A DNA stretch of 64,000 nt from Cenarchaeum sp. (GCA_963692915.1 OY843584.1:800001-864000), one strand, 5' to 3'; shown: positions 3,024-54,884, counted from the first letter of the stretch. A program made the numbers and translations. Notes: generated by a model from the sequence alone, not told the origin.

Positions 3024-3590
3024 GTGTCGAGTGGCGCGGAGGTCACCATGAACCCCGCACCAGAGACCGAACTGGTTAGCGATGACCTACTTGCCAGTCT
3101 CAGGGACATGAAAGTGGATTGCAATATCGAGCCGTTTCTGAGGATGCTTTGGGATCACGGCCTTATCGACTGTAGCACAAACCCGAACGACTCAACGCTG
3201 GACACTCGCATAAAGGTGCAAAAGTTCGTCTATTTTGCCCAAAAGTACTTTGGGTTGCAATTTCGCTATCGACACACAATGTACCTGTATGGTCCATATT
3301 CCACCAGACTCGCAAGTGACTATTTCCAGATACGAAATATTGGCGACGTTCCAAGCGGTGGACCCGAAGGCTGGAGTAGGCAGGCAGAATTTCTCGACTT
3401 TGCAAAAAACCACAACGATGTCAAGTGGCTGGAGATTGCCAGCACGTTAGCACATTCACGGTTTCACGATAACGTAAATGGTGCCGATAATCTAGTAAAA
3501 CGTGTACAGGCAATAAAGCTCAATTTTTCAAAAGAGTACGTTGTGCGCGTGCATGGCGAGCTGGTTCAGATGGGATTTCTCGAGGGGTGA
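3024..3590 (+). CDS. SocA/Panacea (DUF4065)/YwgA-like protein, paralog 2
   Basis: RIKVQKFVYFAQ...YLYGPYS...WLEIASTL; tandem duplicate of 2079-2702; start codon uncertain. Confidence 0.6.
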   Translation: MSSGAEVTMNPAPETELVSDDLLASLRDMKVDCNIEPFLRMLWDHGLIDCSTNPNDSTLDTRIKVQKFVYFAQKYFGLQFRYRHTMYLYGPYSTRLASDYFQIRNIGDVPSGGPEGWSRQAEFLDFAKNHNDVKWLEIASTLAHSRFHDNVNGADNLVKRVQAIKLNFSKEYVVRVHGELVQMGFLEG

Positions 3591-42097: not shown

Positions 42098-43078
42098 TCA
42101 CCCAACCCTGCGTATTCTCTCAGAGCGCTGACCGGGAATGTCAATCACGTACCTTCCGGCGCCGAGCTGCTCAAACCACTCATAGAGAACCTGCACGTTT
42201 CCCGTGAGATCCCGCCGGCTAGGAACCGGCACGTCAGTGCAGTTGTCCTGTATCCACTCCTTTACACGTCCAAAATACGTCTCTGGGTCTATGAATGAGT
42301 CCATCTTTTGCACAAACGGGTGCGCAAAGAATCGTGATGCCAGCTGTGCGCGAAACTCTGCCTCTGACAGGCCCCGCTCTATCCCATAGTTTGCCAGGTC
42401 ATGAAACACACAGGCGGCTATCTCGTCGTTATCAGACGGTTCTAGTCCCTGCTCCATCCTAGTGTATCCGGACACGAGGTCATCAACTATTTCAGTCATC
42501 GGCAGTGCCGATATCAGAAACTTGTCCGGCTGTACACTCACAAGCGAGTCAAGCTCATCCTCTGTCTTTGGTGGCTGCGGCTGTTGCTTGACCCATTTAG
42601 AAAGAGTGCCATACATGTCATCGTCCACAAGCCGTGACTCGCAACGTATGCGCTCAAAGTACACACGGTCATCCGGTGACGCCTCTTTTACAAGCACGCC
42701 CATCTCATGGTTGCCGCCCTTGTGCATTCCCCTGTGCGACATGTTTCCCGTGCAGAGCACATAGTGGCGCAGTCCGGCCGAGACCACCTTTAGGTGGATT
42801 TTAGAGTTCACGTAGAGCCTGATGTCCTGCTCCTTGCAGTACGGGTACAGGGACAGCTCGGATGAGCCTGACACGAGATCCCTAGTGTCCCACGTCGTGA
42901 TGATCACCACCTTGGAGTCGATGCCGTCTAGGAGCTCCCTGAGCACGTCTGTCCGGATATAGGGGACGATGATGTGGATCGTCTCGCCGCTGCGCGAGTG
43001 CTCCTCGATATAGGCCCTGACGGGCGCATAGAGGGGGCTCTGAAACGTGGGCTGCTCGTCGGCCAATCCGGCGCGCAC
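42098..43078 (-). CDS. phospholipase D-family (HKD-type) putative nuclease
   Basis: PYI..., IHLK....(x)TGNMSHRG....NHE resembles the HxK...GSxN...N.E motif; start uncertain. Confidence 0.7.
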   Translation of the reverse strand: MRAGLADEQPTFQSPLYAPVRAYIEEHSRSGETIHIIVPYIRTDVLRELLDGIDSKVVIITTWDTRDLVSGSSELSLYPYCKEQDIRLYVNSKIHLKVVSAGLRHYVLCTGNMSHRGMHKGGNHEMGVLVKEASPDDRVYFERIRCESRLVDDDMYGTLSKWVKQQPQPPKTEDELDSLVSVQPDKFLISALPMTEIVDDLVSGYTRMEQGLEPSDNDEIAACVFHDLANYGIERGLSEAEFRAQLASRFFAHPFVQKMDSFIDPETYFGRVKEWIQDNCTDVPVPSRRDLTGNVQVLYEWFEQLGAGRYVIDIPGQRSERIRRVG

Positions 43079-43376
43079 GCGCGGGGTTCCCGTATATCAC
43101 TGGGCGGACGGCAGGCGACCCTTTTCCATGGTGTCTGCAGGCGATCAGGCCACATGGCCTGTTTTGCCCCAAATCTGCCCCAATATCCTAGACCATGATG
43201 AGGCGCGTTCCTAGCGGCAGTCCTGAGCGGTTCGACAAGACCTCAAGACAGACCTTCAGGCACGACGCAAGGAAATCAGGTTAAAGAGCACCAGCCGCAG
43301 GTTAACTGTGGCTCAACCCAAATTAATTTAAACTCCCAACACCTCGCCGGGGCATGGCAAGGCCGGAGTTGATCGC

Positions 43377-44232
43377 ATGACGCGTCACGTGTGTGGCATA
43401 TCAGGCGGCAAGGACTCTAGCGCTCTGGCCGTCTACATGAGGGACAAGGTTCCGGACATGGAGTATTTCTTTTGTGACACTGGGGCAGAGCTGCCCGAGA
43501 CATATGCATACATCTCAAAGCTAGAGGTCGTCCTGGGCAAAAAGATCGCACGCCTCAACTCTAGTCGTGGGTTTGACCACTATTTCGAGGTCTTCAAGGG
43601 GTGCCTGCCGTCCCCGCAGATGAGATGGTGCACAAAGCTCCTAAAGATAAAGCCGCTAGAGGAGTGGCTCGGCGATGACGAGTCCGTGTCATATGTCGCA
43701 ATACGCGCTGATGAAAAGAACCGCAAGGGGCACGTCTCATCACGCCCAAACATAACAACACAGTACCCGTTCATTGACGATGACATTGACCTCGAGGGCG
43801 TAAACCGCATACTTGACGAGGCAGGCATTGGCCTGCCCGACTATTACAAGTGGCGCACGCGCTCTGGATGCTACTTTTGCTTTTTCCAGCGAAAGGCCGA
43901 GTGGGTTGGTCTTGCCCAAAACCACCCAGAACTCTTCAAGCAGGCCGTCGCCATCGAGAACAAGGTCCTAAAGGACGCCGGGGCCGGCGGTGACGCGTCA
44001 TTTGCGGATCACGCAATGGAGGGCAGGCAGTACACGTGGTCACAGGGCGAGACGCTCATACAGCTAGTTGGCCGAAAGGACCAAATCCTCGCAAGGCATA
44101 AAATGGCAATAGAGAGAGAGAGAGAGAGAGAGAGCTAATTCGCGCCTAAAAAACCTTCCGCTTGTTGACGTTTTAGCCGGGGCACTAGACGAAGAGGAGG
44201 ACACAAAGGCGTGTACCATGTGCCATTTGTGA
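43377..44232 (+). CDS. sspD: PAPS-reductase family SspD/DndC-like protein, frameshifted at (AG)12 (current frame stops at 44138)
   Basis: ISGGKDS, DTG.ELPETY, RWCT..LK, RSGCYFCF; +1 frame continues ANSRLKNLPLVDVLAGALDEEEDTKACTMCHL to TGA 44232. Confidence 0.8.
44111..44134. repeat. (AG)12 dinucleotide microsatellite within CDS
   Basis: Read directly from the sequence. Confidence 0.97.
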
Positions 44233-44241
44233 GGGAATGCC

Positions 44242-45852
44242 ATGAACTTTGAGAATATCTTTGCGAGAATCAGTCCAGAAACACTCTGTAATGACTTTCT
44301 TGGAAAAATAACTGTCCAACTTTTAGAAGCGAGAGAGCCAGACATACTCCAAAGAGCCGGCAAGCTGCATAAAGCAACATTAGAGTTAATCACACCATAT
44401 GAAATGCTAACAAACAAAAAGCTACGAAAGAAGATAACCAGTGTGTTGCTGAAAACTGATGCGGAAAAACTAGCACATAGCTTAAACATAAAAATTCAAG
44501 ACGTGTACAAAGACCTTGAACGTACGCAGATTAACAAAGGGACAAAATCAGAAGAGAGCCTATTAAGATTTTTTGAAATAGACATACCAGAGATAGAGAC
44601 TGTTGCAACACGCCCTGATTCTGAAAAGATTGAACCAAGTGTGGGATTATTTGAACATCAACGCCAAGTGGTTAGAGATGCCATGCAAAATCTAGAGTCC
44701 GAACCGCACAGAACTATAATTCACATGCCCACCGGTGCCGGTAAAACGAGAATAGCAATGAGGATCATAACACACCACTTGCTCAAAAATGAACCAGTAT
44801 TTGTTATATGGTTAGCATATAGCGAAGAATTGTGTGAACAGGCGATAGATGAATTTAACAAAAATTGGAGATCTGTAGGCAACAGAATTGTTAACGTGCA
44901 TAGATTTTTCGGGAAATATACCATGAAATTAACAGATAAAACACCATATGACGGGTTGCTTGTTGCTAGCTTGAGCAAAATGTACAAGGCAGACACTAAA
45001 GCTGATAATGACGTATTTTTGTCAAAATTAGCAGACAAGGCCACGCTGGTTGTCATGGATGAAGCTCACCAAGCAGTTGCAGAAACATATAGTTATGTTC
45101 TAGAACAGCTAGTAGAAAAACACGATGGTCGGTTATTGGTAGGATTGACAGCAACGCCCGGACGTACATGGAATGATCCAAGTGTTGACAAAAAACTGTC
45201 AGATTTTTTTGGGCACAAAAAAGCCACACTAAATAAGAAAAATCCCATAGAGTTTTTAATCAATGAAGGATATTTAGCAGATACAAAAATTGAATCTTTG
45301 GATTACGATAAAATAGACTACACCAACAAAGAAAAGAGTGACATCATGTCAGATCTAGACATTCCAAAATATATATTAGAAAAGCTAGCAAAAGATGTGC
45401 AACGCAGTTTGATCATTTTACAAAAAATTCGAGAGCTTATCAGAGAAGGCCACTTAAGAATAATTATTTTTGCGTCAACTGTGGAACATGCGAAAGCACT
45501 AACCATTGCATTAAAAACAAAAAAGATCAACGCACAGTGCATAACATCAGAAACGCCATCAGCTATACGCAACATAGAAATCAACAAATTCAAAGAAAAT
45601 AGCAATAAACCTATGGTGTTATGTAATTACGGGGTATTGACAACAGGGTTTGATGCACCAAAAACATCAGCAGCCATCATCGCGCGTCCAACAAAATCAT
45701 TAGTCTTGTACAGTCAAATGGCCGGAAGAGCAATGCGCGGGCCAAAAGCTGGCGGAAATAAAAAGGCCAAGATAATAAGCGTGGTAGACAGCAATTTGCC
45801 AGGGTTTGATGATTTTGGAAAGGCATTTCTAAACTGGGAGGACATATGGTAA
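44242..45852 (+). CDS. SF2 DEAH-box helicase (Res/YejH-like), AT-rich
   Basis: HQ, MPTGAGKT, MDEAH, TATP, LTTGFDAP, QMAGRAMR. Confidence 0.9.
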   Translation: MNFENIFARISPETLCNDFLGKITVQLLEAREPDILQRAGKLHKATLELITPYEMLTNKKLRKKITSVLLKTDAEKLAHSLNIKIQDVYKDLERTQINKGTKSEESLLRFFEIDIPEIETVATRPDSEKIEPSVGLFEHQRQVVRDAMQNLESEPHRTIIHMPTGAGKTRIAMRIITHHLLKNEPVFVIWLAYSEELCEQAIDEFNKNWRSVGNRIVNVHRFFGKYTMKLTDKTPYDGLLVASLSKMYKADTKADNDVFLSKLADKATLVVMDEAHQAVAETYSYVLEQLVEKHDGRLLVGLTATPGRTWNDPSVDKKLSDFFGHKKATLNKKNPIEFLINEGYLADTKIESLDYDKIDYTNKEKSDIMSDLDIPKYILEKLAKDVQRSLIILQKIRELIREGHLRIIIFASTVEHAKALTIALKTKKINAQCITSETPSAIRNIEINKFKENSNKPMVLCNYGVLTTGFDAPKTSAAIIARPTKSLVLYSQMAGRAMRGPKAGGNKKAKIISVVDSNLPGFDDFGKAFLNWEDIW

Positions 45853-47609
45853 TGACTCAAAGAAGAAAACCAATGATACCACACAGAAAAGCAATGACGG
45901 CGTTACGTGACATAGGATATAAAAATACCACGTATGCCATTGCAGAATTAATCGATAATTCAATCCAAGCAGGCGCAAAAAATATTGAGCTGCTTTGCTG
46001 TGATCGAGTGATACCCGTCAACAAACGAGAACGAAGGACAATACACCAGATTGCCGTTGCTGATGATGGCTGTGGCATGAACGAACAAGTACTAGAAAAC
46101 TCATTGCAATATGGAAATGGCACAAGATTAGAAGATCGTAGTGGTATTGGCAGGTGGGGCGTAGGGCTACTAAATTCTTCAATATCACAGGGCAAATTAG
46201 TGGAAGTGTACACATGGAAAGACGGCAATGATCCACTATATTCATATGCTGCAGTTGAAGATGATGAGGAAGATGTACCAGTTCCCAAACAAAGTGAGAT
46301 TGATAAACGTTGGAAGAAGTTTTCTGAATGTGTAAAACGACCATCTGGTACATTGGTTGTATGGTCACAGCTCGACAGATGTAGATGGAGAAAATCTAAA
46401 ACAATAATTGATAGATCAGAGCACACAATTGGAAGAATATATAGAAATCTCATTGCGGCGAAAAAAATAAACATTAGTGCAATTTCGTTCACCGATGAAT
46501 TAGAAGAGTATGAAAAACGAGATATAATTATCAATGATCCATGTTATCTCAAAGTCCCTTCATCAACTCCAAAACCATACGACAAAGAAGCCATGTTTGT
46601 GCCAGACGGAGACGGCGATCTAATTGAAACAGTAACTAAAGATGAACAGGAGCATCAGATCAGGGTCAAGTTTTCTCTAGCAAAAGCAAAAGCACGTAGC
46701 GGAATCAAAAAGGTAGACGGTGGTGATGAAGAGTGGGGGCGTCACGCTGCAAATAATGTGGGAATTTCTTTAATGCGAAGTGAACGAGAGTTAGAATTGA
46801 CAACTGCTCTTAACACAAATGATACAAGAGAGCGATGGTGGGGAGTTGAAGTATCATTTTCCCCAACATTGGATGAAATGTTTGGGGTCACAAACAATAA
46901 ACAGAGCGCAACAAATTTTGTAGAATTAGCGACAGCAGTACGGGCAAAAAAACGTTCAAGCAAGGAAGAGGAAGAAGATAGTGATGATAAAGAATTGTTA
47001 CGAATTATTGAAAAAATACAAAAAAGATTAAATCTGATTCGTAAAAAAATACATAACCAAAAAATAGATGCTAGATCAAAAGACCGATATGTGAAAATAT
47101 CCGAGGACATAGGCACTGACGCCATAAAGAAACGTCAAATGGATGAACATGTGGGAGCGAGTGACAAAGGCGAAGAAGGCACCCCAGAAGAACGTGTTGC
47201 CGGACTAACCAAAGCCTTAGAAGAACAGATGTCAAAAGAAGAAGCAGCTGTTGAGGCCAAAAACATAATTTCAAAAAATTCAAAATGTAAGATCATGCCA
47301 AGTCCACTTTCTGGATCTATGTTATTTGACATACAAAGAAGTAATGGAGTATTAATTGTAAAAATAAATCAAAATCATCCAGCATACAATAATTTAATTG
47401 AAGTCGTAAGAGATGTCCCTGACAGCACTAATGACATAGAAGAATTAAAAAGTAGGCTTCAAAGAGCCAATAATGGACTAGAGCTGCTGTTGCTATCATG
47501 GTCCAGATTTGAAGATGAAGAGACGGATATGGACAAACTTCGAGAAATGCAAGATATTAGAATGGAGTGGGGAAAATTTATTGCTGAATTTTTGGAGCAA
47601 AACAAGTAG
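45846..47609 (+). CDS. MORC-like GHKL ATPase, AT-rich
   Basis: GY......AELIDNSIQA, DDGCGM, GRWGVGL, SGTLVVW GHKL motifs; coiled-coil C-terminus. Confidence 0.85.
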   Translation: MVMTQRRKPMIPHRKAMTALRDIGYKNTTYAIAELIDNSIQAGAKNIELLCCDRVIPVNKRERRTIHQIAVADDGCGMNEQVLENSLQYGNGTRLEDRSGIGRWGVGLLNSSISQGKLVEVYTWKDGNDPLYSYAAVEDDEEDVPVPKQSEIDKRWKKFSECVKRPSGTLVVWSQLDRCRWRKSKTIIDRSEHTIGRIYRNLIAAKKINISAISFTDELEEYEKRDIIINDPCYLKVPSSTPKPYDKEAMFVPDGDGDLIETVTKDEQEHQIRVKFSLAKAKARSGIKKVDGGDEEWGRHAANNVGISLMRSERELELTTALNTNDTRERWWGVEVSFSPTLDEMFGVTNNKQSATNFVELATAVRAKKRSSKEEEEDSDDKELLRIIEKIQKRLNLIRKKIHNQKIDARSKDRYVKISEDIGTDAIKKRQMDEHVGASDKGEEGTPEERVAGLTKALEEQMSKEEAAVEAKNIISKNSKCKIMPSPLSGSMLFDIQRSNGVLIVKINQNHPAYNNLIEVVRDVPDSTNDIEELKSRLQRANNGLELLLLSWSRFEDEETDMDKLREMQDIRMEWGKFIAEFLEQNK

Positions 47610-47611
47610 AC

Positions 47612-48880
47612 ATGAAAAACCCAAACACAGCATCGATCACCTACCTAGACTACAACTCCACAACTCCCATGGATGACAGAATTATCAAAGAGTTGAACCC
47701 CCTGTTTAGCACATGGTTTGGCAACCCCTCAAGCGAACACCATGGCTATGGCAGGGATGCCGAGGCCAGAGTAGAGCACGCAAGAGCGCAGGTCGCAGAG
47801 CTTGCCGGAATGCATCCCCCCGATGTCATATTCACGTCGGGCGCAACAGAGGCAAACAACCTGGCGCTGCGCGGCATCGCAGAGGGCGCATGCAGGAGGG
47901 TGAGCGTGCTGGTGGGCGCGACAGAGCACAAGTCCGTGCTAGAGGCCGCCGACAGGCTAGGCGAGCTTGGACTCGCCACAGTATCCAGGGTTCCCGTCAA
48001 GCAGGACGGCACGATCAGCGCAGACACGCTGAAAGGCGCCATATCCGACAATGGTGCCGACATTGTCTCGATCATGGCGGCCAACAGCGAGACTGGCGTC
48101 ATTCACCCCACCGCAGAGCTCGCCGAGGTGACCCACACGGCAGGCGCCCTGTTCCACTGTGACGCGACGCAGGCGCTCGGGCGCGTGCCCTTTGATGCCA
48201 CAAGCCTCAGAGTCGACATGGTCTCAATGAGCGGCCACAAGATGTACGGGCCAAAGGGCACGGGTGCGCTCGTGGCCAGCAGGGACACCCGCAGGAGGCT
48301 AAAGGCGATCATCTGCGGCGGCGGGCAGGAGGGCGGCCTGCGCAGCGGAACGCTCAACGTGGCAGGCATTGTCGGGCTCGGCAGGGCGTGTGAGATCGCC
48401 TCAGGCGAGGGCATTGCCGACGGCTCCCGCCAGGCGGCCCTAAGGGACAGACTGGAGAGCCGGCTCGCATCACGGCTGGCCGGCGTGAGCGTGAACGGCC
48501 GGGGTGCGCCGCGCCTCCCAAACACGTCGAGTGTCAGGTTTGAGGGCGCCTCGGCATACGAGACTATCGCAAACGCGCCTGCACTAGCAGTGTCATCCGG
48601 CAGCGCGTGCTCGGCATCAACGATAGGGCCCTCACACGTCCTGGTCGCCATGGGCATGAGCCATGATGCGGCCGACGAGTCCGTCAGGTTCTCCATCGGG
48701 CGCCCCACAACAGAGGGCGACATTGACATTGCGACAGACTGCATTGTTGCTGCGGTGAGTCGAGTGAGGGATTTGACAATGGCGCACACGGCCAAAAATG
48801 TGCGCACAGGAGACATGATGGCCACCACGGGACACGGGCACAGTCACGCAAGCACTGGGGGAATTGCGCATGCGAGTTGA
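47612..48880 (+). CDS. sspA: cysteine desulfurase (SspA/DndA/IscS-like)
   Basis: YLDYNSTTP, FTSGATEANN, SGHKMYGPKG, SSGSACS. Confidence 0.88.
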   Translation: MKNPNTASITYLDYNSTTPMDDRIIKELNPLFSTWFGNPSSEHHGYGRDAEARVEHARAQVAELAGMHPPDVIFTSGATEANNLALRGIAEGACRRVSVLVGATEHKSVLEAADRLGELGLATVSRVPVKQDGTISADTLKGAISDNGADIVSIMAANSETGVIHPTAELAEVTHTAGALFHCDATQALGRVPFDATSLRVDMVSMSGHKMYGPKGTGALVASRDTRRRLKAIICGGGQEGGLRSGTLNVAGIVGLGRACEIASGEGIADGSRQAALRDRLESRLASRLAGVSVNGRGAPRLPNTSSVRFEGASAYETIANAPALAVSSGSACSASTIGPSHVLVAMGMSHDAADESVRFSIGRPTTEGDIDIATDCIVAAVSRVRDLTMAHTAKNVRTGDMMATTGHGHSHASTGGIAHAS

Positions 48881-49868
48881 GCAGGCGGTTCCAAGCCCCG
48901 GATTTGCGAGGCATGAGACATTCCATCTCCGGTTTGGCTGGCTCAAAAAATGCCATGACGCAGTGAAAAAGGACGCGCGCGTGTTTCAGCGCGAGGACGC
49001 GCTAGTCAGGCTCGGCGTGGGCAAGAACATGGTCAGGTCGATTCGCTTTTGGGGAATTGCCACAAAGGTGATCAGGCAGACAGTGGAGCCTGGAGAGTCA
49101 GGCAGGCGCGGCGGCCAAGAGGTCGAGGTCACCGACATGGGAAGGCGCATATTTGACGAGCGCCACGGATGGGATCCCTACCTAGAGAGGCCAGAGACGC
49201 TCTGGCTGCTCCATTGGCGCCTATATGCCCCACCCTCGTCGATCCCCGCGTGGTGGATACTCTTGAACGACCTCAACGCAGTCAGGATAAGGGCAGACGA
49301 GCTTTCAAGGCACGTGCTAGGCAAGGTGAGCATGGTCTCGACATGGGCAATTCCCAACGAGAGCTCGATCAAAAAGGACACCGACGTGTTTGTCCACACG
49401 TACGCCTCTAGGAGGGGGCATGTCGGTGACATTGAGGACTATATGGACTGCCCATTTAGGGCGCTGCGCATTCTGCGAGCCGACGCCTCGGCAAAGTCTG
49501 GCCTGCAGTTCGCCATTGGGAAAAAGCCCGGCATGAGCGCCGGCATTGTCGCCCACATATGCCTGGACTTTATGGCAAGGCGCGGGACGGGAGCGCGCAC
49601 GGTCTCGATAGGCTCCCTGGCCGGCGAGCCCGGCGGGCCGGGGCATGTCCTAAAGGTTGGCGAGGCCGAACTTGCCGAGCTCCTAGCAGAGGCCGCCGAG
49701 GAGCACGGCGGGATCATTGGCGTGCGTGATGTCAATGGCATGGCACACCTCTCGTTTCCAAAAAATGTCGGCGATGCCGCAGTCGAGATCCTGGATCGCA
49801 TGTACGCGCAAGACGGGCACAGGGCCAAAAGGCCGCGCGCGCTGGCCACGGCGAGGGGAAAGAGATGA
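48870..49868 (+). CDS. sspB: DUF4007 protein (SspB-like nickase)
   Basis: FARHETF.LR.GWLKK, LGVGKNMVRSIRFW, DPYLE...TLWLLHW. Confidence 0.85.
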   Translation: MRVEQAVPSPGFARHETFHLRFGWLKKCHDAVKKDARVFQREDALVRLGVGKNMVRSIRFWGIATKVIRQTVEPGESGRRGGQEVEVTDMGRRIFDERHGWDPYLERPETLWLLHWRLYAPPSSIPAWWILLNDLNAVRIRADELSRHVLGKVSMVSTWAIPNESSIKKDTDVFVHTYASRRGHVGDIEDYMDCPFRALRILRADASAKSGLQFAIGKKPGMSAGIVAHICLDFMARRGTGARTVSIGSLAGEPGGPGHVLKVGEAELAELLAEAAEEHGGIIGVRDVNGMAHLSFPKNVGDAAVEILDRMYAQDGHRAKRPRALATARGKR

Positions 49869-52800
49869 GGCGCAAGAGGGTCGCCAAGGCCACAAGACCA
49901 GTCAAGTCCACCAGATCAGCAAAGAGCGCCACAGTGCGCACAGAGCCGCTCTCAAGGCTCGTCACGCCGATAGAGTCGTTCATGCGCTCGACGAACGTAG
50001 AGAGGGACACGGCAGGGGCCGGATCACTTGGCACATACATCGCAAACGCCTCGGCCCTGGACACGGTGCAGAGGCTTGCTGACTCGATGGCAGGCGGCGG
50101 GAGGGCATTCTCGATAACTGGCCCGTACGGATCGGGCAAGTCGACCCTGGCCGTCTTCCTCGGGGGTCTCCTCGGGCCGTCATCAGACGCTGACTGGAAG
50201 TACGCGCACCGCCTCCTCCACGGAATTGCGCCAGACATGGCACGAAATGTCACTGACGGGCGCAAGGGGCTTGGGGCCCACAGGGGCGGCTTTGCCAGGT
50301 GTACAGTCGTGGCCGGAAAGGAGCCGATATCGGCGACCATAATACGCGCACTCGACAAGGGGGCAAGGGACAGGTTTGGAACGAGATATTCGGCAAGGGA
50401 CTTTGCCACTGCAGGGCAACTGCGCCGCCTGTACGGCGAGATTCGGCAGGCCAGCGGGGCTGCAGCGCACGGCGCGTCGCACACTGGGGCAATAATGGAG
50501 ATTGTTCGCGGAATGTGCTCCAGGGTGCCAGTTGTCATTCTAGTCGACGAGTTTGGCAAGAACCTGGAATATTTGGCAGAGGGCGGCGCAGGCGACGGTG
50601 ACGTGTTCTCCCTCCAGTCAATGGCCGAGGCCGGCACTGGCCCCGGCGCACTGCCGCTGTTTGTCGTGACGATGCAGCACATGTCATTTGAAGAGTATGG
50701 GACCAGGATGTCAGGCGCGCACCGCAGGGAGTGGGCAAAGGTCCAGGGAAGGTTTGAGGACATTCCGTTTGAAAACTCGGCCGAGCAGACAAGGCTCCTG
50801 GTCTCCAGGTCACTCTGCGCACGAGGAGGCGCATCGGGAAGAAAGGCGGTGGACTCGTGGTCAGCAGCGCACATGGCCAGCCTCACAAGGCTGGGCCTGG
50901 CAGACGGCCTGGGCAATGGACTTCTTGCCTCGTGCTATCCGCTCAATCCGCTTGCGCTCCTGGTCCTGCCAGAGCTGTGCGCCAGGTATGGCCAGTACGA
51001 GAGAACGCTCGTCTCCTTTGTGGCCGGAGCCGGCAGGGATGCCGTGCCGGCGTTCATCGACAGGAGCAGGTGGTCTGCCGGTGCGCTCCCGTCCATGGAC
51101 GTCGAGTCGCTGTACGACTATTTTGTCTCTAGCCACCAGTCAGCCGGCTCGGCGTCAGCTGCAAACGTGACGCGCCTAATGGAGATCACGACTGTGATAC
51201 GCGACTCGCACGGCCTCTCAAGGGCGGCGATAAAGGCCCTCAAGACCATAGGCGTCCTAAACCTCGTCTCGACGTCAGGATCCCTGCGCGCCTCCAGGGA
51301 CGTCATGCGCTATGCGGTGGGCCCGGAGGCCGAGGCGGCCCTCGAGGAGCTCGAGGAAAAGTCGATCATCACGCACAGGGCGTATGCTGACGAGTACCGC
51401 GTGTGGCGCGGCACGGACGTGGACATACAGGCGCACACTGAGATTCTGCGCGCAAAGTATGCCGACATGCCCCTGGCCCGCACGCTGGCCATCGTGTCCC
51501 CACTGGAGCCAATGATGGCAGCCAGGCACGGGATAAAGACGGGCACGATGAGAATGTTTGGGCGCAGGTTCCTCGGTGACGGCATCGACGAGGCCGCATC
51601 AGGGCAGGATCACGACGGAGTCATCATGTACATGACAGACCAGTTCGCTAGCCTGCCGCCAGTCAGCGCAGGTGCGCTGCCCACCATAGTGGTGAGGCCC
51701 ACGGTGGACATGGAGGACGTCCGGAGTGTTGCGCTGGAGACGGCCGCAATAAGGGAGATGCTAGAGACTGATGATGCCATAAAGGGAGACTGGGTCGCAC
51801 GCCGAGAGCTCTGGGACCGCATGGTCCACGGGATCACCGGCATAGAGACGGGGCTTGAGCGCGCGTATGGCGATGACGCAGAGTGGTGGCTAGTTAATGT
51901 CGGGGCAAGGCCGCGTCGACTTGACAAAAGCGGCGGGGTTGCCGTGTCAGCAGCAGCCGACATTGCGTATCCAAAGACGCCACATGCGCACAACGAGATG
52001 GTGAACCGGACAAGGCTCTCAACGCAGGCCTCGCGCGCAAGGCTCACCCTGATCAACGCGATGGTCATGCGCCACGGCGAGGAGAGCCTCGGGATGACCG
52101 GATGGGGGCCAGAGCGCGCAATGTACGAGTCGGTCCTCAAGAGGACAGGCATGCACGCACGCAGCGGCAGGTCATGGGGCATAGCCAGGCCGCGCTCCGG
52201 ACTGTGCGCGGCATGGGATTTGGTCATGTCCTCGATAGCGCGATCGAGGCGGCACCGCGTGAACGTAAGCGAGGTCTACTCTGCGCTAAAGGCGCCCCCC
52301 ATAGGCGCAAAGGCCGGCATAATGCCGATCCTCCTAGTCGCAGCACTGCTCACAAAGCGCGATGACGTTGCGCTCTATGAGCACGGGACGTACAAGCCGA
52401 CGATGGCACCAGAGGTGATCGAGCGCCTCCTAAAGAATCCCGGCCATTTTGAGATAAAGCACCTCGCAAGCCGAACGGGGCACAAGGCCAAGGCGATCAG
52501 GGGCGTCGCGGCGGCACTAGGGGCAAACGCGAGCCTCCTAGGCGTGATAGGCGAGCTGGTAAAGGCCGCATCCAGGCTGCCCGCATACACCAGGGTGACA
52601 AAGACCATGGGGAGGCACGACACGGCAGTCAGGGACGCGATACTAAGATCGACAGAGCCAGACGTAATGCTCTTTGAGGCACTGCCGCGCGCGCTGGGAG
52701 TCGACCTGTCATCAAGCCAGTTTGGCACCAGGCTGGCAAAGTCAGTCAAGGCGCTAGAAAAGTTTCATCCGGACATGCTCGATGCCCTGCGCGCCGCTCT

Positions 52801-53314
52801 GCTAAAGGCCACGCGCGTAAATGACCGCAAGCGCCTGGCCACCATTGCAGTGTCGCTCTCCGAGAGGGCGACAGGTGCGGATTCCGGAATGCGCGGGTTT
52901 CTGAACGCCATTGCCACCAGTGCCCTTGATGACGATGAGTGGATAGGGTATGTGGCAATGGTCCTGACAGAAAAGCCAGTTGCTGACTGGACTGACGAGA
53001 CTAGAAGGGTGTTTGACACAAACCTCAAAGATCTGGCCAGCAGGTTTCTTCGTCTCATGGCACTAAACTTTGACGAGTCCGCAAGGCACCTTAGCGCATC
53101 ACCGCCACCGTACAGGATCACGGTTACAAACAGGGACGGGACAGAGAGCATTAACGTGGCCATTGCAGGTGGCGGCAAGGACAAGATGGCAGACAGGGTG
53201 GTCGACGAAATGGTCAGCATTATGGACAAAAAGGGCATGGCTCGCCAGGACGTGATCCTGGCACTAATGGCATCACTTAGCAAGAGGCTGCAGGACAAAA
53301 AGTCCAGTGGATAG
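49865..53314 (+). CDS. sspC: large P-loop ATPase (SspC-like)
   Basis: ITGPYGSGKS Walker A, LVDEFGK Walker B, EWAKVQGRF, YPL.P; coupled to DUF4007. Confidence 0.8.
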   Translation: MRRKRVAKATRPVKSTRSAKSATVRTEPLSRLVTPIESFMRSTNVERDTAGAGSLGTYIANASALDTVQRLADSMAGGGRAFSITGPYGSGKSTLAVFLGGLLGPSSDADWKYAHRLLHGIAPDMARNVTDGRKGLGAHRGGFARCTVVAGKEPISATIIRALDKGARDRFGTRYSARDFATAGQLRRLYGEIRQASGAAAHGASHTGAIMEIVRGMCSRVPVVILVDEFGKNLEYLAEGGAGDGDVFSLQSMAEAGTGPGALPLFVVTMQHMSFEEYGTRMSGAHRREWAKVQGRFEDIPFENSAEQTRLLVSRSLCARGGASGRKAVDSWSAAHMASLTRLGLADGLGNGLLASCYPLNPLALLVLPELCARYGQYERTLVSFVAGAGRDAVPAFIDRSRWSAGALPSMDVESLYDYFVSSHQSAGSASAANVTRLMEITTVIRDSHGLSRAAIKALKTIGVLNLVSTSGSLRASRDVMRYAVGPEAEAALEELEEKSIITHRAYADEYRVWRGTDVDIQAHTEILRAKYADMPLARTLAIVSPLEPMMAARHGIKTGTMRMFGRRFLGDGIDEAASGQDHDGVIMYMTDQFASLPPVSAGALPTIVVRPTVDMEDVRSVALETAAIREMLETDDAIKGDWVARRELWDRMVHGITGIETGLERAYGDDAEWWLVNVGARPRRLDKSGGVAVSAAADIAYPKTPHAHNEMVNRTRLSTQASRARLTLINAMVMRHGEESLGMTGWGPERAMYESVLKRTGMHARSGRSWGIARPRSGLCAAWDLVMSSIARSRRHRVNVSEVYSALKAPPIGAKAGIMPILLVAALLTKRDDVALYEHGTYKPTMAPEVIERLLKNPGHFEIKHLASRTGHKAKAIRGVAAALGANASLLGVIGELVKAASRLPAYTRVTKTMGRHDTAVRDAILRSTEPDVMLFEALPRALGVDLSSSQFGTRLAKSVKALEKFHPDMLDALRAALLKATRVNDRKRLATIAVSLSERATGADSGMRGFLNAIATSALDDDEWIGYVAMVLTEKPVADWTDETRRVFDTNLKDLASRFLRLMALNFDESARHLSASPPPYRITVTNRDGTESINVAIAGGGKDKMADRVVDEMVSIMDKKGMARQDVILALMASLSKRLQDKKSSG

Positions 53315-53410: not shown

Positions 53411-53471
53411 ACGTATTTAAAAACCAGAGATAACGCTTATACGATCAGCGGCCAGCTCCAAGGCCAATGTC
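53411..53471 (+). promoter_or_regulatory. duplicated promoter block (second copy at 54196-54256)
   Basis: acgtatttaaaaaccagagataacgcttatacgatca identical in both copies, directly upstream of each paralog ATG. Confidence 0.7.
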
Positions 53472-54138
53472 AGGACAAGAGCATGCCACGCCATGCCCTA
53501 CTTGCGGGAGCACCAGGGCCGCAGCGGAGGCCGACAGGGTGCCAAAAAAGGAGATCAGCGCGTATGAAAGCCGGATGATTCGGCTCAGGCTAGAGGCCGA
53601 GGGCGGGCCACTCGCCCCCATACCGGGATCCGCTGTCCCCATATTCCACGTCCTCTGCAACGCAGGCGTGATTGACTGTGACATGTCCCCAAAGGACGAG
53701 GACAACGACACTCGCCTGTCCCTGAACATGCTGGTATACTTTGCAAAGCACAGGTTTGGGTGTCCGGGGCTGGAGAGGTATGTCTTTGATTGGAGCGCGG
53801 TGAGCACATTCTCGATGAGGCTAGAGCTCGACTTTGATGACATGAAGGGATTTCATTCAGAGCCGGCCCAAGAGTGGGACAGAAAGGACGAGTTTGTAGA
53901 GTTTGCGCGCAAGCACGGCAACGACGTCGAGTGGCTCCAGATAGCCTCGGCTATATGTTACATAGATGACGAGATGATGAAGGATTCCGTGACGCTCACG
54001 CGGGAGGAGATGATCGACGAGGCGTGCCAGTGGTACATATTCCATCCCGAGGCCGTGCCAGGGGTGTACGACGACATTGCCGACATGCTAGCAAGGACAC
54101 GGGGTGACGCGCAGCCCAGGGCGCCGGACACTGCATAA
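53467..54138 (+). CDS. divergent SocA/YwgA-like family protein, paralog 3
   Basis: IDC..P.D...DTR...VYFA...FG and W.R..EF..FA.KH.ND.EWLQIA shared with 2079/3024. Confidence 0.6.
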   Translation: MSGQEHATPCPTCGSTRAAAEADRVPKKEISAYESRMIRLRLEAEGGPLAPIPGSAVPIFHVLCNAGVIDCDMSPKDEDNDTRLSLNMLVYFAKHRFGCPGLERYVFDWSAVSTFSMRLELDFDDMKGFHSEPAQEWDRKDEFVEFARKHGNDVEWLQIASAICYIDDEMMKDSVTLTREEMIDEACQWYIFHPEAVPGVYDDIADMLARTRGDAQPRAPDTA

Positions 54139-54251: not shown

Positions 54252-54884
54252 ATGTCCGAGCAAGAGCACGCCATGCAGTGTCCGACCTGCGGGAGTCCCC
54301 AGGCCACATCAGAGGTCGTCAAGGTGCCAAAAGCGGACACCGGTGCCCACGATGGCCAGAGGAAACGGCCCAGGCTAACCTCCAAGATCGGAGCCCCGCC
54401 TCCAGGATCCGCTGTCCCCATATTCCATGTCCTCTGCGACGCCGGCGTGGTTGGCTGCGGCATATCGCCTAGCAAGGGTAGCGTCGCGGAGCGCCTGGCA
54501 CTGAACATACTGGTATACTTTGCAAAGCACAGGTTTGGGTGTCCCGGACTAGAGAGGTTTGACTACGAGTGGAGCATATCAAGTCCCCACTCGATCAGGC
54601 TCGAGATCGACCTTGATGACATTACTGATCTCCATTCAGAGCCGGCCCAAGAGTGGGACAGAAAGGCCGAGTTTGTCAAGTTTGCGCAAAAGCACGGCAA
54701 CGACGCCGAATGGCTCCAGATAGCCGCGACGATATGCCACATAGATGACGAGATGAGAAAAGACTCCGTGACGCCCACGCGAGAAGAGATGATCGACGAG
54801 GCGCGCCAGTGGTACATATACAATTCCAAGGCAGTTCCAGGGGTGTATGACGACATTGCCGACATGCTGGTGCGGGGCAGGTGA
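54252..54884 (+). CDS. divergent SocA/YwgA-like family protein, paralog 4
   Basis: Tandem duplicate of 53467-54138; N-terminal CPTCGS. Confidence 0.6.
   Translation: MSEQEHAMQCPTCGSPQATSEVVKVPKADTGAHDGQRKRPRLTSKIGAPPPGSAVPIFHVLCDAGVVGCGISPSKGSVAERLALNILVYFAKHRFGCPGLERFDYEWSISSPHSIRLEIDLDDITDLHSEPAQEWDRKAEFVKFAQKHGNDAEWLQIAATICHIDDEMRKDSVTPTREEMIDEARQWYIYNSKAVPGVYDDIADMLVRGR

Follow-up and report, generated by a model that had tools for sequence, protein, structure and literature searches.

A putative Ssp-type phosphorothioation island with a helicase, MORC-type ATPase and HKD nuclease module in a Cenarchaeum genome

Which proteins act together with the writers of DNA phosphorothioation (PT) where neither of the Ssp effectors is encoded nearby? 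According to the text of PMC8092258, some 85% of sspBCD loci lack both SspE and SspFGH as neighbours, and thus most PT writers are without a known effector. The question is raised by a locus in a 64,000-nucleotide stretch of the genome of Cenarchaeum sp. (GCA_963692915.1, OY843584.1:800001-864000; this whole stretch is called the window below), in which genes for a superfamily 2 (SF2) helicase, a MORC-type GHKL ATPase and a PLD-family nuclease accompany sspA, sspB, sspC and sspD at positions 42098-53314. We consider, with a probability of about 0.65, that the locus is an Ssp-type PT defence island, the partner module of which consists of these three proteins and is neither SspE nor SspFGH. As judged from the sequences, the trio is probably a DNA-cutting restriction module coupled to PT.

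Results

Organization of the locus

Seven genes were confirmed at positions 42098-53314 using an open reading frame (ORF) map and three hidden Markov model (HMM) libraries, PADLOC, Pfam and NCBIfam, with which 13 proteins of the window were scanned. The features, with the evidence for each, are as follows.

42098..43078, minus strand: single-HKD (PLD/Nuc-type) nuclease, 326 aa, with a C-terminal helical/winged-helix region at about residues 182-326 (family alignment and fold)
43079..43376, no strand: intergenic region separating the divergent PLD and sspD genes (sequence)
43377..44138, plus strand: sspD, PT synthesis protein of the PAPS reductase fold, 253 aa as assembled (PADLOC SspD 7.3e-102)
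44111..44134, plus strand: (AG)12 tract (sequence)
44139..44232, plus strand: out-of-frame C-terminal tail of sspD (frame translations; alignment with the sister genome G001)
44242..45852, plus strand: SF2 helicase/translocase, 536 aa (Pfam ResIII 9e-24, Helicase_C 1.8e-13)
45846..47609, plus strand: MORC-type GHKL ATPase, 587 aa (Pfam HATPase_c_3 9.8e-20)
47612..48880, plus strand: sspA, cysteine desulfurase (PADLOC SspA 8.3e-128)
48864..49868, plus strand: sspB, DUF4007 (PADLOC SspB 1.2e-87; Pfam DUF4007 1.5e-77)
49865..53314, plus strand: sspC, BrxC-like ATPase of 1149 aa (PADLOC SspC 8.1e-283)

The genes sspD, helicase, MORC, sspA, sspB and sspC follow each other in this order on the plus strand as a single tight operon, and the PLD gene lies on the minus strand, divergent from sspD. 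The helicase and MORC genes overlap by 7 nt, MORC and sspA are 2 nt apart, and sspA/sspB and sspB/sspC overlap by 17 and 4 nt, respectively; the sole exception to this spacing is between sspD and the helicase gene. Moreover, contigs from two public runs (X1 and X2) span the MORC-sspA junction. A possible archaeal TATA box, TTTAAA, is located at 43327-43332, some 45 nt ahead of the start codon (ATG) of sspD. The preliminary description of this DNA had reported a co-oriented, tightly coupled operon with a divergent PLD-family gene, and all seven genes were found where it had placed them and in the families it had named; what did not hold is an intact sspD, which stops inside the (AG)12 tract with its tail in the +1 frame.

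All four writer proteins are matched by specific models. The SspD match covers HMM positions 1-242 of 277 and is accompanied by Pfam PAPS_reduct (5.2e-11), while the BrxP model reaches only 5.4e-10; SspA also matches DndA (8.9e-125) and Pfam Aminotran_5 (9.4e-70); SspB is covered by DUF4007 over its full length; and SspC is covered at HMM positions 1-1103 of 1104, with the BrxC model at 7e-96. SspB, SspC and SspD are thus encoded together with SspA in one operon, as in an SspABCD writer, and the assignment of the cysteine desulfurase, DUF4007 protein, ATPase and PAPS reductase to this module, already proposed from the sequence, is borne out by PADLOC E values of 1e-87 to 1e-283.

Among the same 13 proteins there is no match to SspE, GmrSD_N or GmrSD_C (PADLOC, Pfam), and none to PbeC, PglZ or BrxL (PADLOC). 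SspF, SspG and SspH gave no match at E <= 0.01 either, a result that holds provided that the PADLOC copy used contains these models, which was not confirmed, though its paper cites SspFGH. It had been stated that no SspE, SspFGH, Pbe or PglZ partner is recognisable here, and this agrees with the scan, in which only the helicase core resembles PbeA.

Occurrence of the trio beside PT writers

Contigs of one genome per species were scanned for MORC relatives, which gave 503 stretches, and 79 loci were fetched, mostly from Actinomycetota, Cyanobacteria and Chloroflexota, in which the partners were sought by tblastn and with a PLD profile made from the loci. Among 7999 candidates scored, 2601 GHKL relatives had E <= 0.001, including proteins 70–93% identical. 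In 64 of the 72 loci with enough upstream DNA, MORC is directly preceded by a helicase gene on the same strand, and the profile search found a PLD gene adjoining downstream in 39 of 72; this helicase-MORC-PLD arrangement is called type 1. In the loci having at least 9 kb on both sides, at least one of SspB, SspC and SspD is present in 42 of 46, and at least two in 40 of 46. The usual bacterial gene orders are sspA-B-C-D-helicase-MORC-PLD and sspB-C-D-helicase-MORC-(PLD)-sspA, and the order in the window, D-helicase-MORC-A-B-C, is a rotation of the latter; helicase and MORC stand between sspD and sspA in many cyanobacterial loci as well. Beyond Cyanobacteria and Actinomycetota, the trio occurs in Chloroflexota, Bacteroidota, Planctomycetota and Nitrosopumilaceae. 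A metagenome scan with the MORC protein, using patterns from the single sequence, found no close relative.

The association also holds in a sample drawn independently of the trio. Among 250 cyanobacterial genomes (without the centre genome; at most five candidates were scored per genome, so a few may be missed), 45 are positive for DUF4007, and the four with a full-length MORC orthologue all belong to these 45. Each of the four orthologues lies on the DUF4007 contig at a distance of 8–10 kb, and none was found in the 205 DUF4007-negative genomes. In a sample of 300 Actinomycetes genomes, one MORC orthologue was found, 6 kb from DUF4007. Furthermore, pairwise identities are correlated between helicase and MORC (rho 0.75), MORC and SspD (0.63) and MORC and SspC (0.58); in the text of PMC6459918, a rho of 0.582 between DndCD and DndFGH is taken as co-evolution.

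A second arrangement, type 2 (GHKL>helicase>PLD), was found with an alignment of three GHKL proteins as the query, which gave 80 loci; a single-protein scan with the GHKL of the sister genome G001 had found only itself. Set aside were two type-1 loci, four loci with the type-2 GHKL (GHKL2) but no helicase match (three on contigs shorter than 5 kb, plus L112, where the GHKL match runs into the end of the contig), 12 loci having just a GHKL at 31–33% identity and 33 distant or partial ones. In the 29 loci with GHKL2 and its helicase, SspB/C/D are present in 21, DndB/C/D take their place in seven, and one, with a short flank, has neither; PLD is present in 22 of 29. In one Dnd-linked locus PADLOC identified DndC (5.8e-177), DndD (8.4e-157) and DndB (3.6e-132), and DndB/C/D/A were confirmed in two such loci. 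In a rough FastTree of 81 GHKL sequences, the supports of which were not examined, Dnd-linked members stand at four or more places among the Ssp-linked ones. Since type-2 loci hold either Ssp or Dnd writers, interspersed on the tree, the trio follows PT writers of both kinds, and since 42 of 46 type-1 and 28 of 29 type-2 loci adjoin PT writers, the arrangement is not due to chance.

Relatives closer to the host belong to the same picture. The archaeal-family genomes G019, G021, G022, G031, G005 and G011 encode helicase, GHKL and PLD proteins, the latter 45–56% identical to that of the window. The trio is located beside ssp genes in G005, G022 and G031 and beside dnd genes in G011, which has no DUF4007 anywhere in its genome; the loci of G019 and G021 are too short to judge. 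Recurrence beside sspBCD, which had been suggested as a check, was thus found in several bacterial phyla and in other genomes of the Nitrosopumilaceae family. The proposal that helicase and MORC, with or without the PLD protein, form an alternative PT-sensing effector gains from this recurrence, except that PLD is a regular third member and not an option, and that PT sensing is putative. The architecture, which had been placed in an ammonia-oxidising archaeal lineage, is not special to such archaea, as the loci kept from the 503 stretches are mostly bacterial.

Some of the loci have peculiarities of their own. In an Anabaena sp. locus (L035:6982-8322), a 446-aa ORF of the DndB family (PF14072, ParB-like) lies between sspD and the helicase gene; in some type-1 loci such a protein may have a regulatory role or sense PT. 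In a Nostoc sp. locus (L040:7774-9983), the helicase is cut to 364 aa, lacks its N-terminal ATP-binding part and is preceded by a 383-aa HNH_4 ORF, so that the locus is either decayed or has undergone a nuclease swap; short helicase matches of this kind are present in about a dozen Nostoc-type loci. The idea that the HNH ORF is a divergent N-terminus of the helicase was rejected, since it is unrelated to the helicase. In Rhodococcus (G062:C1:1719981-1725427, behind L006), an intact MORC orthologue is accompanied within 5 kb by a second copy interrupted by TAG and by a C-terminal fragment, which is a local duplication with decay. In addition, a distant GHKL clade (23–26% identity) adjoins DndB/C/D and a DndA/SspA-like desulfurase in three Alphaproteobacteria (L158, L163 and L168), and GHKL ATPases may be tied to PT writers more widely than in the two trio types.

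Helicase, MORC and PLD proteins

The helicase consists of an N-terminal region of about 130 aa, which matches no family, and a ResIII/Helicase_C core, in which the motifs PTGAGKT, DEAH, TATPGR and QMxGRxxRG are invariant in 17 sequences. Against the PADLOC model of PbeA it scores 2.2e-27, limited to the helicase part of the model (HMM positions 236-627 of 672).

The MORC protein has a GHKL plus S5 transducer module at about residues 9-410, followed by a helical/beta C-terminal region. Residues E34, N38, D73, G75, G77 and G100-G107 are invariant. Its AlphaFold2 (AF2) model (mean confidence, pLDDT, 79.4) aligns over residues 9-413 to SMCHD1 (Z 21.9), MORC3 (Z 20.5), MORC2 (Z 18.3) and MutL (Z 17.7). 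Residues 306-316, GISLMRSEREL, may correspond to the S5 motif GhXhhpXXRhl of MORC proteins (PMC2292703), agreeing at 10 of 11 positions, with E at one hydrophobic position. The protein shows features of prokaryotic MORCs, namely a GHKL domain with the four nucleotide-binding motifs, an S5-fold domain and an SF2 helicase as operon partner. It also matches the PADLOC model of MzaB (1.1e-13), limited to the first 113 residues.

The PLD protein is weak by sequence, as PLDc_2 (E 0.0061) falls under the Pfam cut-off; the same model matches 29 of 30 members of its family. H95, K97, N112 and E125 are invariant in the alignment of the 30 sequences, and the motif HxK(x)n...GSxN...E is present. The N-terminal domain of the AF2 model (pLDDT 89.9) has the fold of SauUSI (Z 16.9), Nuc (Z 14.3, root-mean-square deviation 2.9 over 140 residues), BfiI (Z 13.9) and NgoAVII R (Z 11.6), with a sequence identity of just 12–14% to the matched restriction enzymes. 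By the family alignment and the predicted fold, we firmly assign the protein to the HKD nucleases. In its C-terminal part the protein atlas and Pfam found only PLD families, and structural alignment of residues 182-326 gave winged helices of the ArsR type (Z 6.8) and the regions that recognise DNA in N.BspD6I (Z 7.3), BrxA (Z 6.2) and FokI (Z 6.0). This match deserves attention, since the texts of PMC10853773 and PMC12839542 present SspB/DUF4007 as a module of that kind.

The frameshift in sspD

The sspD reading frame stops at 44138, inside the (AG)12 repeat (44111-44134). No dinucleotide repeat in the genome of 1,644,826 bp is longer (the runner-up is (GC)8), and no other AG/GA run reaches six units. 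The frame is restored by the gain of one AG unit or the loss of two. The 31 codons behind the stop encode in the +1 frame a tail (...KNLPLVDVLAGALDEEEDTKACTMCHL) that ends with TGA at 44230-44232, so that the restored stop would fall 9 nt before the helicase ATG. The tail has no internal stop and only two differences from the 27-residue in-frame tail of G001, which suggests that the shift is very recent or reversible; the sspD of G001 itself is 279 aa long, in frame and 95% identical, and has no repeat at the site. An acidic stretch followed by CxxC forms the C-terminus of 50 of the 50 SspD homologues listed (46 from type-1 loci and four from archaeal relatives), and this end of a full-length SspD is out of frame in the assembled gene. 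In all four public runs, positions 44100-44142 are either masked in the contigs or the point of a break, so the contigs carry no information on the (AG)n length. The frameshift may represent phase variation, very recent decay or an assembly slip, and as it lies at this unique repeat, the sequenced population probably has its PT writing off, or able to be switched.

The public runs also contain a second allele of the sspD region with dozens of substitutions over window positions 43348-43823, to which the smaller part of the summed contig depth belongs. Four of four runs show it over 43348-43424 and three of them over 43688-43823, and it derives from a related strain or species co-occurring in the same samples.

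Exchange of cassettes in Cenarchaeum

The helicase and MORC genes differ from their surroundings in composition. Their G+C contents are 38.2% and 38.3%, and at third codon positions 29–35% (MORC 29%), against 55–63% and 67–73% in the neighbouring genes, with the shift exactly at the helicase/MORC gene borders. Compared with G001, a sister Cenarchaeum, the PLD protein and SspD of the present genome (G000) are 92% and 95% identical, but SspA, SspB and SspC only 59–69%. In G001 the space between sspD and sspA holds no genes; its helicase and GHKL are different ones, of type 2 (34% and 29% identical, respectively) and of low G+C content, and are located behind sspC on the other strand. The foreign composition of the pair, together with this comparison, indicates that effector cassettes are exchanged within a conserved locus frame.

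In G001, the PLD gene and sspD are separated by a split GmrSD/DndI-like gene of low G+C content (L101:4204-6027), encoding GmrSD_N (341 aa) and GmrSD_C (243 aa) parts that match HEC-06/Orf5 and, weakly, SspE in PADLOC, and an rve-family transposase gene lies just past the locus (L101:17271-18413). The site is a variable defence hotspot in the genus.

The host is an ammonia oxidiser with amoA (E 2.4e-117), and its genome is complete in one contig. The remaining genes of the window are housekeeping ones, e.g. for tryptophan synthesis, succinate dehydrogenase and homoserine dehydrogenase, so the 11-kb defence island is located inside the core genome. Two tandem copies of a family of proteins of about 200 aa (window 53467-54138 and 54252-54884) directly flank the island, and two more (2079-2702 and 3024-3590) lie in a low-G+C patch at 2–4 kb; the family has about 13 copies scattered over the genome and no Pfam or PADLOC match.

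Discussion

We propose the following model for the island. By homology, SspA would supply the sulfur, and SspB, which would recognise the site, the AAA+ ATPase SspC, and SspD would write single-strand PT marks. The domains and the gene context suggest that the trio may work as an ATP-dependent restriction enzyme split across three genes, like PbeA, SauUSI and the NgoAVII-type enzymes, with a MORC clamp added. The HKD nuclease would dimerise to cut, and its FokI/BrxA-like winged-helix part may read the DNA, while the helicase would translocate and the MORC-type dimeric clamp would gate or license cleavage; the PT marks on the host DNA would separate self from foreign. We assume that the trio is a swappable cassette, which here is probably a recent arrival from a low-G+C donor, put in the canonical slot after sspD, and that in the sister Cenarchaeum a paralogous cassette was placed behind sspC instead. 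A more far-reaching version, in which the trio is a PT-reading restriction machine spread across domains, with a FokI/BrxA/SspB-like reader, that plugs into Ssp (single-strand PT) or Dnd (double-strand PT) writers, and in which sspD is switched by AG slippage and hence phase-variable in an archaeon, appears to us rather unlikely. Since the in-frame stop lies so close to the helicase start, such a switch could also tune the translation of the effector.

Several observations weigh against coupling of the trio to PT, and some of them would also suit an autonomous MORC-type restriction or type IV-like cassette, which merely shares defence islands with Ssp and Dnd and in which PT plays no part. There is no ssp gene within 10 kb in four of the 46 full-flank loci (L019, L043, L064 and L075), the identity of the PLD proteins is uncorrelated with that of SspB and SspC (rho about 0), and 12 GHKL loci at 31–33% identity (L138-L142, L145-L147 and L149-L152; 10 of Clostridia type) have neither helicase nor ssp genes nearby, among which L149 has DndC/D; the wider GHKL family thus also works outside PT contexts. 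Restriction operons with MORC, SF2 helicase and nuclease are predicted without a PT link in the text of PMC2292703. The helicase and MORC of the window are recent low-G+C arrivals, compositionally foreign to the ssp genes of the locus, so that the two sets may not be matched partners, and the split GmrSD-like gene and the transposase mark the G001 locus as a general defence hotspot. Besides, no known PT-binding domain (DUF262/ParB-like or sulfur-binding domain) was recognised in the trio by the Pfam and PADLOC scans, and the reader-like C-terminal domain of the PLD protein is a lead only, as its Z scores are middling (6–7.3). The counts, moreover, overstate the number of independent events, because kin genomes are not independent. 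Nevertheless, co-occurrence in 42 of 46 and 28 of 29 loci, and in four of four orthologues against none of 205 genomes in the cyanobacteria, is far above what hitch-hiking in islands would give. The helicase and MORC lie within the ssp operon, from sspD to sspA, with overlapping or 2-nt-spaced genes, and both paralogous cassette types keep the writer association. We therefore regard a cassette independent of PT as improbable.

The position among the modification genes could instead mean that helicase and MORC assist in writing PT or in controlling it, e.g. by remodelling DNA for the access of SspBCD or by a DndB-like regulation, and are not a restriction arm. The recurring order sspD>helicase>MORC>sspA, the absence of an adjacent PLD gene in 33 of the 72 loci, which also speaks against a fixed trio, and the tracking of MORC identity with SspD and SspC (rho 0.58–0.63) would fit this. 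However, a MORC is present in just four of the 45 DUF4007-positive cyanobacterial genomes, so most sspBCD systems do without it, and the published Ssp writers work as SspABCD alone, as described in PMC8092258. The third gene most often encodes a nuclease whose HKD residues are intact; the same type of trio is also attached to the Dnd writer, which has a different mechanism; and the helicase core is closest to helicases of restriction systems, namely PbeA and the type I and type IV restriction enzymes. A role in writing is thus very improbable.

Whether the module is still active in this genome is a separate matter, and its decay would be compatible with the PT-coupled reading of the family. 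The foreign insertion and the frameshift could be steps in a loss of function that leaves nothing active or switchable: sspD is without the CxxC tail kept by all 50 listed homologues, the Nostoc subset of the family has N-terminally truncated helicases, and small-genome sponge-symbiont lineages are prone to gene loss. On the other side, the six other genes are of full length with invariant catalytic residues, the sspD tail is open and nearly identical to that of G001, and the break is located at the sole long AG repeat of the genome, a classical mark of slipped-strand switching or of an assembly slip. Decay seems possible to us rather than probable. The combination of an out-of-frame sspD with intact effector genes is a poor fit to a simple model in which unmarked DNA is killed, unless the effector needs PT to fire, is silenced together with the writer, or the frameshift is an artefact.

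A module of GHKL/MORC, helicase and HKD nuclease beside Ssp or Dnd is not described in the searchable literature, although the supplements of PMC10853773, PMC8092258 and PMC12914056 might list such neighbours; the main text of the 2024 reappraisal of PT systems (Rakesh, Aravind, Krishnan; PMC10853773) does not contain the words MORC, GHKL, MutL or Hsp90. To this extent the suggestion that the architecture is undescribed stands. If the PT-coupled reading is true, the trio would be a new effector class for PT-based immunity, with a sister form attached to Dnd, and at about one tenth of the sampled cyanobacterial ssp loci (4/45) it would fill part of the effector gap. Furthermore, the prokaryotic MORC ATPases, kin of the eukaryotic MORC and SMCHD1 silencers, would gain a concrete function connected with a chemical mark on DNA. 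In the two Cenarchaeum genomes, effector cassettes have been swapped inside one conserved locus, and phase variation in an archaeal symbiont can be tested directly at the (AG)12 break of sspD.

Comparison with known systems

BREX type 4 shares a PAPS reductase, a DUF4007 protein and a BrxC-like ATPase, homologous to SspD, SspB and SspC, according to the texts of PMC12914056 and PMC12839542; this type, however, is defined by PglZ and BrxL, neither of which is among the 13 window proteins. DISARM was considered and rejected, as the PLD protein matches DrmC weakly (5.3e-6) and no match to DrmA, DrmB or a methylase was found among these proteins.

Among the restriction enzymes, SauUSI has its SF2 ATPase fused to the HKD nuclease, and in NgoAVII/CglI the ATPase is a separate subunit. 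SauUSI, BfiI and NgoAVII/CglI resemble the trio in joining a single-HKD domain to a DNA-reading domain with an SF2 ATPase as partner, but the putative reader in the window is FokI/BrxA-like and not B3-like, a MORC subunit is added, and the link is to PT and not to base methylation. The MORC operons of Iyer et al. 2008 (PMC2292703) are similar as well, with GHKL plus S5 beside an SF2 helicase and an HKD or other nuclease, a sporadic distribution and lateral transfer; as far as the text of that paper goes, these operons are predicted to be restriction systems linked to DNA methylases, and no link to PAPS reductase, DUF4007 or Dnd is mentioned.

Compared with SspABCD-SspE (Xiong et al. 2020), the window has the same writer set and the same logic of a PT mark with a linked effector. 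SspE, however, is a single protein of DUF262 and DUF1524 (PMC8092258 and PMC11662687, as far as their texts go), whereas the effector of the window would consist of three, an SF2 helicase, a MORC GHKL ATPase and an HKD nuclease, in which no ParB-like PT-sensing domain was found. SspFGH is alike in being a three-gene effector cassette beside sspBCD at a minority of loci, namely 196 of 2,678 ssp loci as reported by Wang et al. 2021 (PMC8092258), compared with the trio in four of 45 DUF4007-positive cyanobacteria. According to the published description, SspF is a Walker-A protein and SspH is FtsK-like, and by this description and the model scan SspFGH is set apart as a cassette without helicase, GHKL or HKD content.

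In DndCDEA-PbeABCD, too, HKD nuclease and SF2 helicase activities are combined with a large dimeric ATPase next to a PT writer, in archaea as well as bacteria (Xiong et al. 2019, PMC6459918; reinterpreted in PMC10853773). In the described system, PbeA fuses the HKD and helicase parts and PbeC is an ABC ATPase of the CxC type, whereas in the window the HKD protein is encoded by a separate gene on the opposite strand, the ATPase is a MORC-type GHKL protein, and PbeB and PbeD are absent. As reported in PMC8092258, PMC6459918 and PMC11662687, DndFGH, DndI and SspFGH attack unmarked DNA, and SspE and PbeABCD need PT to fire. The trio also differs from PbeABCD in its choice of writer, since it pairs mainly with Ssp and not with Dnd alone.

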